This document shows positions 19,001 through 33,704 of a DNA stretch of 49,681 nt, in pieces (position 1 is the first letter of the stretch; each line of letters opens with the position of its first letter). Origin of the DNA: Vermamoeba vermiformis (taxonomy: Eukaryota). The stretch covers positions 496,001 to 545,681 of the forward strand of contig JBEWZL010000076.1 of assembly GCA_045837725.1 (NCBI GenBank). The letters run 5' to 3'. Both the position numbers and the translations under genes were made by a program. The notes under the pieces were generated by a model. The model made no database searches and was not told the origin of the DNA. It saw only the letters and a list, made by a program, of their open reading frames with translations.

Positions 19001-22000
19001 TAGTCGATTTACCACTTACTTCAAGGTCCAAGGAATGATCGGCTGATTGCGCAGATTGAGCATTTGACCGTTGCAATAGAGTGCGAATGAGACGTAAGTG
19101 TCGGGCAATGATTTTTTGTTGAGCTTGAGTGCCTTGAGCTGATCGGGCGTGAAGGGTTCTAGTCGTTTCATGCGCAACATGAGTGGTTGTTCGAGAGCCC
19201 ATGAGCTATATGCAGCCGTGAGCTGATTGGTGTAGTTCATATTCACGTTGAAACTCTCGCGTCGTCCGTCACTGGTGAGCGAGTCAAACACGGGCAGTGA
19301 AGTGTTGCGACCGAGCGAGGCCAGAGTGGGGATATTGGGCGCTGATACGGCCCCAACACTCTGCGCGGGACTGCTGGTGGTGCGCGGGGTCGTATCACTC
19401 ACCGAGGGACTGCTGCTCAGAGTGGCAGTGGTGTCTGAGGGACTCGTGCTCAGGGTCTCTGTGCCCGTGAGTGCAGTGTCAGGGGTCTGATTGGGTGCTT
19501 GAGTGGGCTCTTCCTCCGTGGTGTGGATTTGTGACACGGTACTGTCCATCGCTCCAGTAACAGGACTAGTGGAGAGCGGCGAGGTAGTACTTTGATTGGA
19601 TTCAGCGAGCAGTTCGGACACATCTGCAGCACTCATCAGAGACTTGCGATCACCAGGGGCTGCCTCAGTGCTGGTTTGCGGCTCAACAGGCGCAGCATCG
19701 GGCTGTTGCACAGTAACAGGCTCCGCGCGAGTGTTAGTGAGCAGAGTCTGCACGACCGATAGCTGTTTGTAGGGACTGATTTCCTCGACATTGCCACGAC
19801 GTCGCTTCACGCGTTCAGTGTTGCGCAGATATTCACGCACGTCTTCGCTGATGAAGTTGCGGTGATACACGACAACAGCGAGCTCGCGTCTCTTTCTGAG
19901 TGCATCGCGGATGTACGGCAGTGAAATGAGCAGCATGCTCGAGGTCAAATACTCGTCAATGCCCCGTACTTTGAGAATGAAGTCCCTCGCACTCGCTGCA
20001 CTTGGGAATGAGCTCGGGGCTGCGTCAAATATCGCGCTCAACACTTCTTCACACGAGGCGAGCAGTTTGACGTCGACTGACTTGCACACAGACGGATCAT
20101 CTTGCGGCAAATACCACAACAATTTGAACTCCTGCGGCAAGTGTTTGCAATAAATCTTCTCCATCGTGGGCGTGAATTGTGCCATTGAATGACGCGTGCG
20201 ACGGAATGTTGTTCGGAACACTGAACTCATCGTCCTAGGGGTAGGTGAATAAATGCCTATTGTTATCTGCAGCAAACAAGTGACTTACTTGCGCATTGCG
20301 GCTCTAAAGTCGTTAATTTCAATGCTGTGCGGCACAGTGACACCAATCATGTCGCTGATTTCTTGTTGCACGAGCTCTTGCTCCACACGCGGCACAAAAT
20401 ACACGAGAGGAGGCTCGAATTCTTTGAGGCAGTATTCGATGTACGGTGTCTCCATGCTAACGGTACGACGATTAGTTGTTGTTTGTTATAACATTCGTGC
20501 TTACAATGTCAAACTTTCATCGGTCCAGTAATCATCGTCCTCAGCGCGCAGCACGTAATCGTTTTCGGTGCCGAGTAATTTGTGCTTTTTGACCACTTCT
20601 TGATAGAGTGACACTTTGACACTTTCAATCGACTCGTTGCGCGACACTGGCATGCGCACTTGATCAGCGACCGAGGGGATTTTAAAAGTGATGTTCAGCT
20701 GTTCAAACTTGTTCAACATTTCACCCGCAAATGAATCGCGAGCGCCCTCAGTACTCTCGACAGTGCTACGCGATACTTCAGAAGGGCGTGCCATGGGTGC
20801 GGGTTCCAGTCTGAGCGGATCTGACACGGTCATCGATCGAGCGCTGATTTGTCGCACAATTGCCACATTGCGCGAGCTAATCGAAGGACGCGAGGCCAAG
20901 AACCGCGTGCTAGCGCGCTTGTCCGTTGCAGAGCCCTGCGGTGAAGTGCTGAGCTCGCGCGGACTGGTCTGTGGCTGCACTGAAGTGGCGGCAGTGCTGT
21001 CGGTGTTGAGTGGAATGGCTGGGACAGCAGTACTCGCGGTCTGTTCGCTCTCAGTGGGCATATTCTGTGCACTAGCGACGGACACAGAGCTGTCAGGACT
21101 GGTCTCACTGACTTCTGCTGTCTCAGGCGGCTTAATGACTATACCATTCGACGACCTCAAGCCTCCGATGGTTACGCCTGACACAGATCCACGTCGTTCT
21201 TTGCGCACATTTTGATTGTTGAGCACTAAAATGGATCACAATTAACAGCTGCTGGCGTTAATTTATCGGTGGCGTACTGACCCTTTTGTGACCAAGTGAG
21301 CGGTGTGCTATTATTAGTCACATGATCGCTCGTCGATTCACTGCGTATTTTACGTTCATTATCAGCGTCATTATTGTTGTTAATGTTGCCTGGTTCTTCG
21401 CTAATGATGATTTGTTTTTTTACAATTGCCGATTCGGTGTAGGCAAATGAGGGTCGATAGGTCCTGTCGTAGAGTGGATTGATCTCGCCCTGTGCGATGA
21501 TGGGGGCACTTGAGTTGCGTATTGAATTAGGCAGACTCGTTTGGGCGTCAGCTGCGCTAGCTGGCGCTGAACTGTCAGTTGAATCTGGTGCTACAAAGAA
21601 CCAAAAGTTAGCAAAATTTTAGTGCAATATGTGATGACATATTTGAATATGAAAAGACCGTTAATTTAAATTTGAGCTGATCAAATTGGATCGTGGCATA
21701 TTACTGCATTATTACGGGTGCCAACATTTAGGATTGCATTATTTATTTGATTATCACTATATTTCATGTTAAAATGTTACTTGCACCGACCCAAACCCTA
21801 AATTCCAAATCCCAAACGAAAATATTTTGTTTTTCCGACATACGAATTAAAATTTGAATCAAAGGCATTACCTTTAGCTTTGTTAGTTTGTAAACTATCA
21901 TCATTATTTGGAATGTAAGCTGAAGACGCAAGTGCAGGCCCATTCGAAAGGAAATCTAAGTCCTCCTTGGCTGGATTCTTCTTCTTAGTTGGAATATGAC

Positions 22001-25707: not shown

Positions 25708-28700
25708 TTACACGATCGATTTGATCACATCCACGCGCAATCCCTGTGGCTCTTGGACTATGTTACACAAACAGCTCTCCACTGCTTTGCCAATCACCGC
25801 ATGAGGTTCAGATTTGTGCTTTTGTTTCAGTGTCCATTGCTCCACGAGTGCTGCTGCGACATTCACGTGCTGCGCGACTGTTTTGTTCTGTGCTCGACAC
25901 TCGCCGTGCACTTTAAATGATTTTCTCGCCCGTTCAGCTGACTGAATGGTGCGGCATTGCGTGCATTTGAAGTGCGCGTGTTGTGCCTGCAGTGACAGTG
26001 CTGCAGACAGCTCGGTGTTAGCTGCAATGGCCTCTAGACCCTCAGCGAGACAATAAGCGCACTGCAGTTGTGACTCGACGAGGGTTGGTTTGATGGACAA
26101 GGCCACCACGGACCCGCGCGACAAGTCTCGTGGCGCAGGTACAGAAGTGTTGTCAGCTTCCAATGCCTTGATATTGACGCCCAAGGCAGCACACAACGTG
26201 TCGTCAGTGCCAATCTCGCGCACCACGATCTGTTTGTCCAACACTCGTCGACCAGGCAGAGCATTGGTATTGCTGTAAGTGACCGCTGATTTCTTCACCC
26301 ACCGCACCTCTTCAACCGCGCTGTATTCAGTCGCGTGGCACATGTAGTCGTGGTAGTTCACAGCAACAAACAAGTACACGTGCCCTTCACGGACTTGATG
26401 CTCGTTCTGGACACGAATAGGCAGCAGTGTCTTGCTGCCATCGCTCACATAGACTATGCGTCCATTGTCCTCGCTTCAAACAGAGAATCAGCGCTGTGTT
26501 TGTGTTGCAATGAGTGACAGTTGTGCCTTACCTCATCGAGAGCGACTTAGTGTCCTTGCGCACAAACAGCACTTTGCCGAGCACGCTCAAATTGTTAACT
26601 GGTGCTGCATTCAACTTATCTAGTGCTATCAGTGATGCGCATGAGTAGGTAATACCACCCGTTGTGTTGGGATCGGAAGCAAAAGCGAACTCCTCAGTGC
26701 TTTGCAAGTGATTGATTACTCGGCCAAAAGATGCACCACCAACCCTACAACGTATTGTTAGACTATTCCGATGTACACACAAGCTTACCCTAATTTTTTG
26801 TCCTGGGCCAGTCCTTTTAAGCTGATCCACCTGCCTTCGCACTGCAGCAGAGCCTCGCTAAAATAATTAGTCTGATTTACGTAGGTAATTTCAACATACC
26901 ACTTGGCAGTGTGCCGCACATCAATCACCGTCACAGCATTGGGCGAGGACTGCGTAATTAACCGTACACCAAGGCCAGTTGAAGCAGTCAGTTTGTCCGT
27001 ATTGTATTGTGATATTTGCAACTGTTTCAGCTTGTGCAAGAAGAAGCCATCGCACAGGTCACTCAGCGCAGGTCTGCCACGCGTCTTCTTTCTCGGAGCC
27101 TCATCCGAAGCCATTGAGCAGGTGCTTGTGAGCGGTTGCACAATAACTCGCTGCACAAACACGCGCAGTGAGTCTTCTTTGCTGGGCACGTGTTCTGTGG
27201 GCTTGGTGAGCGGTACAATCTGCATTGGCGAGTACTGAAATTCTGTGCTCGGCGAGTACACTGTTAACAACTTCTCAGCTGCGAGTGAGGGTGCTGTGTG
27301 CAATGAATTAATTGGCTGTGCAATGAGAGTAATGCGAGTAGGCTGCTTACAGTCCTCGTGCTCTTCGCTCAGCATGTCATCTTGCTCGTCTTCAGCGTGT
27401 TCGTGTTGCTGGTACATTGACGCCATCACAACACTGGTGCCCTCTTGTTCGGCGACCTTGAGCGAGTAATACGGCGGAATGAGCGTCAGTCTAATGCCCT
27501 CGACTACTTGTGGCAGGTCAATTTCGACAGTTTCTTTCTCGTGCTTGAATGCCACAACCGTGTACTCGCCAGTCTCGAGTCTGCACCTGGCCACTGACAA
27601 GTGATTGAACACACTTTTGACTTTGATGACCTTCACGGTGATCGGCGCATCTGTCAGTGCCTCGTTGTTCTTCATCTGATTCGCCACTTGTTTGCGCTTG
27701 TGCTTGTCAAGCTCGCTCAGTTTAGCCATGCGTTCGGCAAGTCCACCCCTATAAATATCAATTAATACCAGTCTTCCTATTACAATGACAGCACATACTT
27801 CACCAAGTGCGCCATGCCCTTGCGTCCGGTGTTTTCTTCATTGGGCACAAATTGAGTGAATTGTCCCGAATTAACACTGATCTTGTTCAAGAACGTCTGA
27901 TCTGCAGTCCCGCTGTTCTGCACTGGTTTAATGCGCAGTCCTTCTTTGAGCACCACAGGCTGTTGTGTTCGTTTGAGCGGAGATATGAAACTGCCTCTGA
28001 TTTTGTCGGCGGTGTTCCAAGTCTCCTGTTGCTGTTGTTGTTGTTGTGGCTGACCACGGGTGTTATTTACAAGATTGAATTTGATTGGTCCAACATTTGC
28101 TGCGCGAGTCTCTTCTTTTTCTTCTTTGAGCGCCGCGGTGAAAATATCGTCCTCGTTGTCATTGTCATCGACATCATCAACCAGCAGTCGCAAATTCTTG
28201 TTTTCATATATGTCCGGTGATCCACGTTGGATTGGTGGACTTTCAGGCACGTGATCAGGACTGTCGGCAATATAATCCTCGTGCACTTGTTGACCTGCTG
28301 GTGGGCTGTTAGAGCGATCAAACATCTCCTCATCGTCATGATCGTCAATATCCTCAATGTCGTGCTGTTGGGTTGATTGGAATTTGGTCGGTGTTCGGTG
28401 CGTGCTTTCCATAGTCAACATTTCATCGAGCTTTTGACTGTCTTGACTCTCTTCGATAGAGTCATTCAACGACGGCATAATAGGCACTTTAGCGTTCTCT
28501 CTCATTTGTTTCAACATTTCGTTTTGGTGCTTCACTAACGGTGAGAACTTTGACACAGCAGCGACAGGTGAAGAATCAATTTCGTCTTCAATGTCATCGT
28601 GCTTAAATGCTGCGTCGATCTCTTCTATATTCGAGACCATGAGCTTTGATTCTTGGTATCTGTTTTGCTCTTCAGACTCGACAATGTCGTCTTCAATTTC

Positions 28701-29374
28701 TTCTTCAAACTCTTTTTCCAATTTGCGAGGTACCGGTTGCGAGCGATGAACACGCGTTGGAAGTGCAGGGGGCGAGTTCACTCTGGTGTTCTTCGGCGAG
28801 GACTGCGAGGACGGCAATTTGAGTGGTGAAGGCGAGAGTCGCGACTTCTTGTCGGGTGTGGTGGTTTTGACACGACGCGACGCTGCAGCCAAGAACTCTT
28901 CGTTGGACTGGCGCAGCAAAGTGATGCTGTTCTGACGCTCTAGTTTGACTTCAGGCACGTGACTAGAGCTCTCGACAGGCGAACTTTCAATGCGCTCTAG
29001 TGCTTCAAAGGGCGGCTCTAATTGTGATGGTGTCGGGGACTTGGGAGCTTTGATTGGTGACAAAGTGATGGGCGACGAGGCGATTTGCAAGTCTTGTGGA
29101 CTCGATTGAATGTCTTCGTCTTCGAATTGCTCGTTGTGGCGCGAAGCGAGGCTGGTGTATTTGCCATCTGAAGGGAATTTAGATCCGCAGTTAAAATTAT
29201 AGAAAATGTATTTATAGACTTACCAGGAGTTAATTTACTTCTCTTCGGTGATTTTTGTGAGCTACCAGGTAACGAGACGCGTGACGTCTGATCAAGACAA
29301 ATTAAAAATTTAACTCGGCATTTATTTCTGAATTTTAATAGCATTACCTCTTCGCGCTTTCTTTTCTTTTGCAT
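25708..29374 (-). CDS. SPIDR: SPIDR-like DNA-repair scaffold (disordered N-terminus, OB-fold/Zn-ribbon C-terminus)
   Basis: GGLAERM, RLTLIPPYYSL, VFVQRV, RLITQ resemble recalled SPIDR motifs (GGLAERL, IFPPWQKL, QRVY, LVQD); CAYC..CTQC Zn ribbon. Confidence 0.62.
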
Positions 29375-29691
29375 CCACTGGCCTATTTTGACAAATATTA
29401 AAATATTTTAGTAATAGGCCAAACCAGATTTATGGGTATCATCGATGCCGCTGCTTACCATCATTATTATTCTTGCTAGAATTAATTTTGAACGAGGAGC
29501 GCATTAATTAAGATTGCCTTGTGGTCTGGCCGATCAACAGGAAAAAAAACTGCTCTGTTCTCAGAAATCAATTTGTTCTTTCCGTTTGCTTCGTAGTCAA
29601 CAACTCTCTTGATCGTAACAACCATACATCAAGTATTGAGTACACACGACCATATGGCTTTAATTAGGACGCGTTGTTTGTAAACCACCAG

Positions 29692-32406
29692 ATGTCTGAA
29701 TCTACGCATAGAGCTCCTTGGGAGTTAAGTAGAATTAATGACTACGAAAAAATCGAACGCATTGGCGAGGGCACATATGGGTAATCATCAATATTAATTG
29801 TGCGTGTAGGCACTTCAGTCATTAATCGGATTTCTATCTAGAGAGGTATTTAGAGCCCGTCACTACGAAACAAATGAAGTCGTTGCAGTAAAAAAAGTAA
29901 AAATGCCAGAAACAATGCGTGAAGGGGTATGCTCATATTCAATTTAATTCCAAAAAATCATTAGCGGAAATCTGGTTTATAATACGTAAATTCGCAAATT
30001 ATAGAGTGAAAATACGTAAAGCGTAGACCAGTGAATAAATTAAACAAGTTACTCTTCCTATTTTTCTAATATTCACCGTATATTTCAGTTCCCGATAACG
30101 GCTATCAGAGAAATCAAAATTCTGAAAGCACTCGAGCACAACAATATAGTTAAATTAAAAGAAATTGCTATATCAGGTAGTTATGCCACGGCAATGTTAT
30201 AAGTGCGATCTGATTGATTTATTTTCAGCTCAAGAAGAACTCGAATTTAAGAGTATATTTCTCATTTTTGAATTTTTGGAGCATGATTTGCAAGGTCTAT
30301 TAGTACAATTGCACGAAAAGAAGCGATGGCTCACTCTTGGGCAGATCAAGTCAATCGCCAAACAATTGCTCGAGGCCGTTAGTTACTTGCACAAAAATAA
30401 CGTGTTGCATCGTGATATTAAAGGTACGTGATAACAATAACCCTTGTAATAATAATTCGCCTTAACTTACTCGGTTGACAGCTTCGAACATGCTCATCAA
30501 CAATCAAGGCGAAGTCAAGCTCGCTGACTTTGGTTTGGCGCGTATTTTTCAAGGCCCGCAAGGCAATTACACCAATCGCGTGATCACGTTGTGGTTCCGC
30601 CCGCCTGAACTGCTCTTAGGCGCGCAATCATATGGACCTGAAGTTGACGTGTGGAGTGTCGGGTAAGTGTCAAATTGAACCTGTCAATGAAGTGCTAACT
30701 TGTCTTGCAGCTGTATCATTGCTGAGTTGCTCTACAAGCGTGCAATATTGCCTGGTCGCACAGAACTCGATCAGCTCGATCTGATTTTCAAGTTGTGTGG
30801 CACACCGAACGAGGACAATTGGCCTGGCGTGCAGAAACTGCCTTATTGGAACACACTCAAGCCACTCGTTCACCGAGCATCAAACTTGCGTCAAACATTT
30901 TCGTAGTAAGTACTTATCATTTGTCACAGCCCAGCTAACACGTCAATTAGTTTTGACTCAGAGGCCATGCAGCTGATTGAATCCATGTTGAAATTAAATC
31001 CCAAAGATCGCATCACCGCCGAACAAGCATTGCAATCCTCGTGGTTCACATCAGATCCACAGCCTGAAAACCTTACCGAGTATGTCATTTGAGCACCCTC
31101 TGTCGCGTCTAACAAGTACACAGGATGTTGTGCACAGTGGAGTCCTTGCACGAGTACACTGCGAAGGCGAGACGACAAGCCAAGCGCGAGTCCTCGTTCA
31201 GCAACAATCTCAATGCCAAGCTGCAGAGCATGACCTTGCAGCCCTCGCCGAGCAAGTCAGTCACTTCGTTCAACGTGCCATTCAGCACTATCAGCGTAGA
31301 TCAAACCAAGACCTCGCCAACAGTCCCTACGATCAACATTCAAGGCTCGTCCCCTGGACATTTCAGTCCAAAAGCCAGAACACCCAGCAAACGTCCCTCT
31401 CGCTCACCGAGTCCTTCGGCCATCAATGCCTCTCTGCAAAATAGTTTTAAATTCACGAGCAACATGCCGCCGAGCTCTAATCCCTTGCCTCCCATCGCTT
31501 CTCAAGGCTATTTTTCCGCACCGCAGCCACAACTGCAACAACAGCAATCAGAATTTGTGCCGCAGAACATTCCCGCGTACTTTGCGCAACATCAACAACA
31601 ACCGCGCACGCAGTCACAGTTCTTTCCCATGCCGAGCAAGCAACAGACTACGCAGTTCAGTCAAATGTCTCAGCCACAACTGACGCAAATGCCGCAAGTG
31701 AATCAACCTCCCCCGCAGTTCTCATTCCCGAGTGCTGCAGTGCCTGTCATGTTCAAACCTCAGAGCTATCAGACCGCACAGCCCACAACACTGCCTTCAC
31801 ATCCCACGCAGTATCAGCCGTACAACCTGCAACAGCACACTGATCTGCAACAACAGTACATGCACGCGATGCAAGCACAATATCAACACAACTACGCGCA
31901 GTACTATCAACAGGCCTATCAAGACATCAATCAGCAGCTCTATCCGCGCAGTGTGTATCCACAACAACAGCCCGTTCAACACGCGCCTTATCAGTATGTG
32001 GCAGCTGAGCAAGCTATTCACCACGACCTGTCGCTAAGTGGCAGCAATCACAACATTACCGCGCATTCGATAGTCCCGACAGAGCTGGCTGCAGTTCCCA
32101 AGTTTTCGTTTCCCAGCGGTAAGCCACCAGAAATTAACAAAATTGTTCATAAAATAACGTGCACTATCAGGTGCCAAGCCCTCGTTGTTTAGCGCTCAGC
32201 GACAAGCTTCACCGGATTACTCGCAAGCCTCGCCTTCGTATTCCCCTAGCTCGCCGACCTACTCCCCAACTAACGGATCTGAGTCTGACTCTGCGCCGCT
32301 CGACGACAGTGATGACACGGACTACGTGCCGAGTAACTACAAAAAGGACAAACCTGAGACCACCAAAGGAGCCAGATCACTGCGGAGTGCCACAAAAGTA
32401 CCGTAG
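29692..32406 (+). CDS. Transcriptional cyclin-dependent kinase (CDK9/CDK12/CDKC class, PITAIRE) with Gln-rich tail
   Basis: [56 protein letters not shown]; last exon joins in frame (intron ~32119-32170). Confidence 0.93.
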
Positions 32407-32510
32407 AGTTCTCTCCAGCAACCACTGTTTTAAATACTCTTTATCTGATGTACATAAGATTTACTAAAAACAAAAGGACTGCAAAAATGCAACCCAAAAA
32501 ATTCTAAAGC

Positions 32511-33704
32511 CTATTTCCTATTTCGCAATGCTTTAGTAATGCTCGCACTAGGTGGCTCACTGTCGAAGATGCCCGCACAATCAGGCCAGCCATCGAGCAG
32601 ACTGTAGCCCATGTAGTTCGTGTGATCAGGAATGCTCGGCACCCAAATCGAATCAGAGCAAGTCGGATCCTCGCCTGATTTGTCACACACTTTCAGCTTG
32701 CCGTCTATCTCCCAGATCTCAGTGGCGATGTGATGAAAGCCAAGTAACTCGAGTGGTAAGTGCGGCACAATGTCATTCGCATGGACCTGTACATTAATTA
32801 AGGACTGTCCTCATACTCGGTCCGATTTTACTCACGACTCTGGCTGCAGCTGGTAAAAGCTTTGAGACGTAGTTGAAGAACCCATCATTGCCTGAAATAC
32901 ATAAGTGAGCTGCCTATACGTGGCCGTACGTCCAATGTGCACAAATCATACCGACGCGAGGAGAGCCGTAATTATTGAGTGTGACGGGGAATGTGGTGCG
33001 ATTCTTCAGCTCCACCGCTGCAATCGTGGCCACTGCAGCACCGAGTGAGTGACCGGTCACGTGCACTTCATTGCACTGCGGACATTGTTGCTGTGCGCGG
33101 TTAAATCGATATCTAACGTTAACTTTACGTACCAATGTCTTCTGGAAAGCAGACCACATCTGTGGGGCTAGACTATCGTACACTGAAAGAAAACCTTCGT
33201 GCACTTCAACGCCAGGCATGCCGCGGAATAAAACTCTTTTGGCTTGAACAAAGGTGAGGCTCGAGCGAAAGAAATAGTGAGGAGCATACCAAATTCGAGG
33301 TCATCAATCCAATCAGTTATACTAAGCGTTATTGTACCACGATATGCGATCTGAACTGTAGATACGTTCCAAGGTTAGCAAAGTAAAGAAAAATATTTGG
33401 TAATTTTGAAATTGTTATATTGTAATAACATTATTATTTTGTTATTTTATTATTACGTACTAATATTATTATAGTATCCAATGTAGCCGGAAGTGTCAGC
33501 GTTTTGGTTATAGATTGCATCAACAACTGTCAGCTTTGGTATTGACTCTTGTTTGCACCAATAACAGGACCAGTCCTGAATTTTGTTATAAGGACAATAA
33601 GCCGCAAAGGAGAGAAGCGCTTGAGCCTCAAGCACAGAGACCTGATAAGAAAGTCCAAAAAAACTGATAGCAAGCACAAGGCAAAAACAATACGGCGCTT
33701 TCAT
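32511..33704 (-). CDS. Secreted class 3 (fungal-type) lipase
   Basis: Signal peptide; AYRGT; VHEGF; VTGHSLGAA nucleophile; YGSPRVG; DIVPHLP; DHTNY. Confidence 0.92.

Follow-up and report, generated by a model that had tools for sequence, protein, structure and literature searches.

Can a kinase that phosphorylates RNA polymerase II at its C-terminal domain (CTD) carry a short CTD of its own, and what might such an element do there? The question is raised by a gene on a 49,681-nucleotide stretch of Vermamoeba vermiformis DNA (contig JBEWZL010000076.1, positions 496,001 to 545,681; the whole stretch is referred to here as the window). By its sequence the gene is a CDK12/13 orthologue of a Vermamoeba-like amoeba, i.e., it belongs to the cyclin-dependent kinases (CDKs) that act in transcription. 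An initial annotation of the window had proposed that the last exon encodes three in-register heptads close to the CTD consensus YSPTSPS. Translation in the frame of that exon bears this out: the heptad array occupies residues 669-689 of the protein and is preceded by a partial unit, ASPD, at residues 665-668. An acidic box and a basic tip complete the exon. The answer that is tentatively preferred here is that this last-exon module is a docking and substrate element for CTD readers.

The heptads and the exon that encodes them

The best three-heptad span of the protein agrees with three copies of YSPTSPS at 15 of 21 positions. No shuffle reaches this value, whether the 409-residue tail (5,000 shuffles), the 78-residue last exon (20,000) or the 45-residue S/P-rich core (20,000) is permuted, and the maxima over the total of 45,000 are 12-13. 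Ser is found at heptad position 2 in all three full units and at position 5 in two of the three. The protein has only three YS dipeptides, at residues 669, 676 and 683, and a six-frame scan of all 49,681 bases finds scores of at least 11 only in three overlapping spans at the heptad site. Tandem Repeats Finder detects no 21-nt DNA repeat at the heptads, and the periodicity is therefore present at the protein level only. Since the three units differ in their Ser and Pro codons, the heptads do not appear to be a recent product of slippage in the lineage of the window.

The gene model was assembled by hand and checked by script (Table 1). All eight introns are GT..AG and have lengths of 44-162 nt, an in-frame stop is present upstream of the ATG, and the product has 730 residues. 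The open reading frame of the last exon spans 32158-32406 (+) and contains the heptad frame. Public sequencing runs carrying the gene were sought, and four (X1, X15, X21 and X23) were mapped to positions 29600-32500. Contigs of X1 skip seven of the eight model introns, with GT..AG ends at the model positions; the library type of X1 is only guessed as RNA, and the run is read as cDNA because seven introns are removed precisely. Intron 8 is removed in an X1 contig of 710 nt. This contig aligns to 31662-32117 and to 32170-32423, differs at 13 letters, and extends 254 letters from the joint on its shorter side. The contig joins exactly at the 32118/32171 junction that had been proposed, and the last exon is spliced in the frame that yields the heptads.

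Other sequences agree with the model to differing extents. Intron 3 (30177-30228) is absent from the X1 joints, and indirect evidence for it comes from X21 and X23 reads that start at exon 4 and have loose ends translating to the end of a relative's exon 3. Reads of X21 and X23, which bear the same species label, also show the intron 5 joint. At 90% likeness, the depth of these two runs over the last exon is almost nil (two bins are below 1) and no joint is seen there, and they are uninformative on the heptad exon; X15 covers exon 8 only in part. The intronless contigs of two relatives, P0001 and P0002, carry the exon 8-9 junction in the same frame. P0007 and P0157, which are open reading frames called on genomic contigs, end shortly beyond that junction's FSFPS site; an intron at the same place would produce such an end. 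Retention of intron 8 would extend the exon 8 frame through 32119-32192 (+), stop it at 32190-32192 and give a protein without heptads and acidic box; only the spliced form is seen in X1.

Table 1. Coordinates of the kinase gene and its parts in the window
Feature	Position	Strand	Evidence
Gene of the CDK12/13-type kinase (nine exons; 730 codons and a stop)	29692..32406	+	Every model intron is GT..AG; X1 contigs lack 7 of the 8; orthologues collinear
Exons 1-7, kinase domain	29692-29780, 29842-29926, 30089-30176, 30229-30423, 30482-30662, 30711-30905, 30951-31079	+	Exon translations match PF00069; orthologue P0002 has human CDK12 as its top PDB match
PITAIRE motif of the cyclin-binding helix	30092..30112	+	Translation; aligns with PITAIRE of human CDK12
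Exon 8, C-terminal kinase extension, then Q/S/P-rich disordered tail	31124..32118	+	Composition; pLDDT below 50 for most of the equivalent P0002 region
HE motif and polybasic cluster (13 residues)	31149..31187	+	Aligns with HELWSKKRR of human CDK12; H and E at least 90% conserved in 40 family members
Intron 8, 52 nt, GT..AG	32119..32170	+	Excised in X1 contig
Exon 9, last exon including stop; putative mini-CTD module	32171..32406	+	Gene model, relatives, X1 contig
Partial heptad ASPD and three in-register CTD-like heptads: YSQASPS (32218-32238), YSPSSPT (32239-32259), YSPTNGS (32260-32280)	32206..32280	+	Translation, shuffles, six-frame scan
Acidic box (17 residues), acidic run then Tyr-x-Pro	32281..32331	+	95% identical to P0002 and to P0004; published criteria for phospho-CTD mimics (PMC7110113)
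Basic C-terminal tip (24 residues)	32332..32403	+	K, G, R, S and final TKVP invariant in clade alignment

Kinase class, disordered tail and distribution of the array

The initial annotation described the protein as a PITAIRE CDK, and the PITAIRE motif, the HE motif and the closest solved structure agree in placing it in the CDK12/13 class. PF00069 matches the exon translations (2e-11 and 1.5e-16) and the orthologues (6.4e-69 and 1.4e-68). The structure-match search, as well as the AlphaFold model described below, used the orthologue P0002 in place of the window's own spliced protein. The best solved-structure match of P0002 is human CDK12 (4NST, 6.2e-95, 322.2 bits), followed by CDK13 (319.5 bits), CDK9 (297.7), Ctk1 (289.5) and CDK2 (about 250). 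The class is assigned by bit score, in which CDK9 trails by a modest margin. PITAIRE, the T-loop and, in the C-terminal extension, the HE motif plus polybasic cluster all lie within the P0002-CDK12 alignment, and a 15-residue stretch of the extension aligns with DCHELWSKKRR of CDK12. The HE motif and polybasic cluster are described for Cdk12 and are common to transcriptional CDKs (Bösken et al., PMC3973122), so that they do not separate CDK12 from CDK9. The relatives are named "cyclin-dependent kinase 12/13" by JGI. The kinase domain of the amoebal protein starts near residue 17, and an N-terminal arginine/serine-rich (RS) arm is absent. An arm of this kind is typical of animal CDK12/13 and is not required for the family. 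A cyclin K partner and activity on CTD Ser2 and Ser5, further features of the class, are putative for the amoebal protein.

A tail of about 310 residues lies ahead of the last-exon module. In residues 341-652, Q makes up 17%, S 13.5% and P 13.5%. The AlphaFold model of P0002, built on a 40-row alignment, has a mean predicted local distance difference test (pLDDT) score of 66.9. It is confident in the kinase domain and falls below 50 across nearly the whole tail, with about 38-44 at the heptads. Composition and model together uphold the description of the tail as Gln-rich and disordered.

Within the P0002 tail, a Q/Y-rich helix at residues 580-619 (pLDDT 78-88) is an exception to the disorder; it corresponds to 31845-31960 (+) of the window, residues ~562-600, and as modelled could be a self-association or coiled-coil element. 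A basic Ser-Pro/Arg-Ser patch at 31350-31418 (+), residues 397-419, is largely kept in all relatives and contains 6 of the 13 S/T-P sites of the protein. This patch may be a small RS-like element located C-terminal to the kinase domain, as compared with the N-terminal position in animals. In the Gln-rich part of exon 8, the X1 contig has a 6-nt insertion, CAGCCA, at 31523 (+), and P0007, from a near-identical relative, has an additional QMSQPQLT copy further on. The length of the Q/P-rich tail thus appears to vary between strains.

The evidence for conservation is limited to five closely related sequences, i.e., the window and four relatives. Searching with the last exon retrieves a single cluster out of 50 candidates, which is 74% identical across the full length (E = 6.5e-20). 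The cluster is represented by P0001, a Trinity-assembled V. vermiformis transcript in EukProt, and a second member, P0002, has 755 amino acids on an intronless contig of 2,363 nt; both keep the heptads. A search with the P0002 tail matches two of 6,263 candidates, P0001 and P0004. P0004 is 58% identical in the tail and reads NSPVTPT YSPSSPT FSPHSPT FSPHSPI TPTIGS, and P0161, a member of the P0004 cluster, also carries a heptad array. The three-heptad scores of the relatives are 16, 16 and 13 of 21. An in-register x-S-P-x-S-P-x array is kept in all five distinct sequences, with a unit number of 3 to 4; units have been gained or replaced, and in some of them Tyr has changed to Phe. Identity to P0002 and P0004, respectively, is 93 and 90% in the kinase domain, 74 and 58% in the tail, 88 and 64% in the heptads and 95 and 95% in the acidic box. 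Conservation in orthologues, on which the initial annotation had made its proposal depend, is therefore observed, the V. vermiformis transcript included, within a shallow clade.

Several further candidates were considered. The whole last exon was tried as a degenerate heptad array, with Tyr704 exactly five heptads after Tyr669, and this was rejected as P0004 breaks the register by one residue. A metagenome scan with the tail alignment gave 98 pattern matches, one of which passed tblastn; this locus, L001, is an unrelated open reading frame that shares only APLDDSDD and was set aside. A search of the ESM Atlas with the last exon gave no usable match. The RNA reads of X21 and X23 are 90-95% alike to 29600-32500, and their loose ends fit P0001, not the window. 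The window thus seems to come from a clearly diverged lineage under that species label.

Outside the clade, a full HMMER search with P0002 was run over 1.84 billion representatives and the best 150 matches were examined. One of them is P0007, a tail fragment of the same gene. A tandem heptad array is present in none of these best 150 kinase representatives; the top score is 11 of 21, and one representative has a single YSPQSPS. Because no array is found among them, the heptad tail looks like a lineage-specific gain in the Vermamoeba group.

A different picture of likeness is given by a 52-residue region of P0002, heptads plus acidic box, when searched against proteins of more than 1,322 amino acids (257 matches at E up to 10, 370 candidates, 120 listed). 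All 120 matches listed contain Pfam domains of RPB1, the polymerase subunit that carries the CTD, and the best has E = 1.1e-19. YSPASPS is present exactly in 66 and YSPSSPT in 43 of the 120 listed RPB1s, and the other units of the clade are present in none of them. In the RPB1s of two other amoebozoans, Luapelamoeba hula and Dracoamoeba jomungandri, YSPSSPS predominates among the heptads (21 and 33 copies), and this unit differs by one residue from the central unit of the kinase. An RPB1 of Vermamoeba was not identified among the 120 matches listed. The order of heptads, acidic stretch and basic stretch resembles the distal end of many RPB1s, and the module may have arisen when an RPB1 gene had its 3′ end captured.

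The acidic box and what the module may do

Directly after the heptads, the acidic box DDSDDxDYVP is the best-conserved stretch of the tail (95% identity, against 58-74% for the tail as a whole). The initial annotation made no mention of it. Phospho-CTD mimics in yeast are characterized by upstream acidic residues, by a Tyr and further residues filling the hydrophobic pocket of the CTD-interaction domain (CID), and by a disordered location (Han et al. 2020, PMC7110113). The Sen1 motif is D2052-D-D-E-D-D-Y-T-P-S-I, and the same paper anticipates CTD mimics for "docking of a CTD kinase" (PMC7110113). On inspection, the amoebal box displays these three characteristics, as a short-motif match in a region where the pLDDT of P0002 is below 50. 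The pattern of at least four D/E in the seven residues before Y-x-P is found in all five clade sequences, in two of the 150 kinase representatives (132,730 residues) and in none of the 120 RPB1s (220,136 residues). A stricter form, Y-x-P-[ST], fits the window only, as the relatives have Asn, and the pattern was relaxed to Y-x-P. The two matching kinase representatives have it outside their kinase domains (DEEEEDIYTPP at residue 486 of P0058 and DSDDDYSPK at residue 56 of P0144), and acidic-Tyr-Pro motifs may recur in the CDK12/13 family.

The preferred reading, docking and substrate element for CTD readers, is a tentative one and would work as follows. The end of the disordered tail would be a "mini-CTD", consisting of one partial and three full heptads with phosphorylatable Ser-Pro sites, the invariant acidic box ending in Asp-Tyr-Val-Pro, and the basic tip. 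CTD kinases would phosphorylate the heptads, most readily the kinase domain to which they are attached or that of an adjacent molecule. The phosphorylated heptads, together with an acidic box that is built like a constitutive phospho-CTD mimic, would then be recognized by CTD readers, CTD-interaction domains among them, and this binding might hold the kinase in the network of readers and RNA-processing factors around the elongating polymerase. We infer the phosphorylation, the reader binding and the effect on localisation from the sequence. Animal CDK12/13 are thought to achieve such anchoring by means of their RS and proline-rich regions, which are absent from the amoebal protein. Docking gains some weight because the invariant acidic-Tyr-x-Pro box adjoins the heptads. 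Substrates of human CDK12 other than the CTD, with sites that resemble the CTD, have also been described (PMC6844070). A more far-reaching form of the proposal is that the last exon is a self-contained mini-CTD in which heptads written by the kinase itself are combined with a constitutive phospho-CTD mimic. The writer would present its own CTD code to CID-type readers and could recruit, or be recruited by, termination and 3′-processing factors independently of the polymerase tail. This form is regarded as doubtful.

Several observations weigh against assigning the module to the CTD machinery. The array has few units, three or four heptads only, and the first heptad of the window has lost Pro3. 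Pfam model PF05001 gives the last exon of the window 10.7 bits, against a cut-off of 20.3 (E = 0.72), and has no match at E up to 10 in P0002, P0004 or P0161. Against P0004 the heptads are barely above the tail average (64% vs 58%), and Tyr1 is Phe in two of three P0004 heptads. Kinase domains within the clade are 90-93% identical; at such shallow depth, conservation may partly reflect a short time of divergence. The acidic box resembles the yeast motif over a short stretch, and the likeness serves as a lead. An additional reading of the box as a set of CK2 sites was dropped, as the last exon has only one strict S/T-x-x-D/E site.

Such points are shared in part by the strongest rival, in which the tail is a generic proline-directed phospho-tail or a near-neutral low-complexity region. 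Here the units would have arisen by slippage and would involve no CTD machinery, and the part under selection would be the acidic box, acting with an unrelated partner. The drift of unit number and identity within the clade fits this well, as P0004 and P0161 have units that look recently duplicated (FSPHSPT/FSPHSPI, and YSPSSPT twice). So do the Tyr to Phe changes, the subthreshold Pfam score and the near-average conservation of the heptads relative to P0004; the tail is, moreover, SP-rich in general and has a second S/T-P cluster at residues 362-417. A generic tail is nevertheless difficult to reconcile with the failure of all 45,000 shuffles to reach the observed match, with the register and S-P spacing maintained in five of five sequences, and with the use of exact CTD heptad variants. 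It also does not account for RPB1 being every match listed in the similarity search, nor for the lack of a DNA-level repeat in the window. This rival is considered somewhat unlikely.

It had also been suggested that the tail is a pseudosubstrate or an autophosphorylation switch. In this case the tethered heptads would sit in the substrate site of their own kinase, as competitors of the polymerase CTD, and activity would depend on phosphorylation or displacement of the tail. A long flexible tether indeed links the CTD-like heptads to the catalytic domain, and none of the heptads has Lys7, a substitution that human Cdk12 does not accept (PMC3973122). CTD analogues and the Caenorhabditis elegans protein PIE-1 have been reported as inhibitors of P-TEFb, but the reported route is through the histidine-rich region of the cyclin and not through the active site (PMC3745420); a preprint reports that PIE-1 blocks Ser2 phosphorylation. 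With Ser2 and Ser5 retained, the amoebal units should turn over and not block the site, and autoinhibition leaves the invariant acidic box and the basic tip unexplained. It is judged quite improbable. Among the three proposals of pseudosubstrate, autophosphorylation switch and docking mimic, a strict pseudosubstrate appears the least likely, because the heptads, with Ser2 and Ser5 present, look like real substrates.

An artefact, whether a wrongly predicted last exon, chimerism in the assembly or read-through of the frame, might be suspected from the unspliced frame, which stays open for 24 more codons to the stop at 32190-32192 and in which the P0007 and P0157 calls ended, but this extremely improbable reading is refuted for practical purposes by the X1 contig that crosses the junction with 254 letters on its shorter side and by three independent intronless contigs or transcripts of relatives with the same architecture.

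CTD kinases are usually described as finding their substrate through cyclins or accessory domains, and CTD mimicry has so far been studied mainly in termination factors of budding yeast. The components found here, CDK12/13, CTD heptads and CTD mimics such as the Nrd1-interaction motifs (NIMs) and PIE-1, are known; what is new is their combination on the kinase itself, an arrangement that appears confined to one small amoebal clade. The initial annotation knew of no description of it, and likewise no printed description of a CTD kinase with CTD-like heptads was found in the full-text literature searched, which leaves out most subscription journals. A natural CDK12/13 with its own short CTD and a phospho-CTD-like motif represents a compact test case. 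It raises the questions of what is the fewest heptads sufficient for reader binding, whether a CTD kinase phosphorylates itself in the way that it phosphorylates the polymerase, and whether CTD mimicry is a wider way of wiring transcription factors together. As a clean lineage-specific gain, absent from the 150 nearest representatives, the tail would also offer a clear comparison for studies of its function.

With respect to neighbouring sequences, the kinase gene is convergent with a class 3 lipase gene at 32511-33300 (-) (PF01764, 2.8e-14), with about 100 nt between the end of its last coding stretch and the kinase stop, such that the 3′ ends nearly touch. Just upstream of the kinase gene, at 27780-29219 (-), is an open frame of 479 amino acids that is rich in Ser, Glu and Asp and is without a Pfam match. 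Elsewhere in the window, open reading frames with a rhomboid domain (2-997, -; 7.5e-29) and with a PI3-kinase Ras-binding domain (19016-20284, -; 3.1e-07) are found.

Comparison with known systems

The closest comparison for the catalytic part is human CDK12 and CDK13 with cyclin K (PDB 4NST, 4CXA and 5EFQ). The kinase domain, the PITAIRE helix, the T-loop YTN(R/K)VITLW and the HE motif with its polybasic cluster are held in common. The amoebal kinase differs in having no N-terminal RS arm; the C-terminal tails are unrelated, and only the amoebal one ends in CTD-like heptads.

With the RPB1 CTD the amoebal tail shares tandem Y-S-P-x-S-P-x units in a disordered region, and YSPASPS and YSPSSPT are exact CTD variants. 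RPB1 tails also often end in an acidic and then a basic stretch: 77 of the 120 have at least four D/E in their last 30 residues, and 37 of these also have at least three K/R, which is a loose likeness. In contrast to the RPB1 CTD, the amoebal array is limited to three or four units, resides on a kinase, remains below the Pfam cut-off and has Phe in place of Tyr1 in some units of the relatives.

The yeast CTD mimics, i.e., the Nrd1-interaction motifs of Trf4, Sen1 and Mpp6, have in common with the amoebal box that acidic residues lead up to Tyr-x-Pro and that the region is disordered. Each yeast motif occurs on its own, in contrast to the candidate amoebal motif, which comes right after phosphorylatable heptads.

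C. elegans PIE-1 and synthetic CTD analogues provide examples of a CTD-like sequence outside RPB1 that acts on a CTD kinase, as the amoebal tail would. The PIE-1 heptad has Ala in place of the phospho-acceptor Ser. If a PIE-1-type unit is defined as one that is non-phosphorylatable, the amoebal heptads are of a different type, as they keep their Ser. PIE-1 furthermore acts in trans, whereas the amoebal element is in cis on the kinase.

The C-terminal repeats of Spt5 (PMC4066402) recruit processing enzymes. They are likewise a short-repeat substrate of transcriptional CDKs, and they differ from the amoebal heptads in their unit and in their carrier, which is not the kinase.

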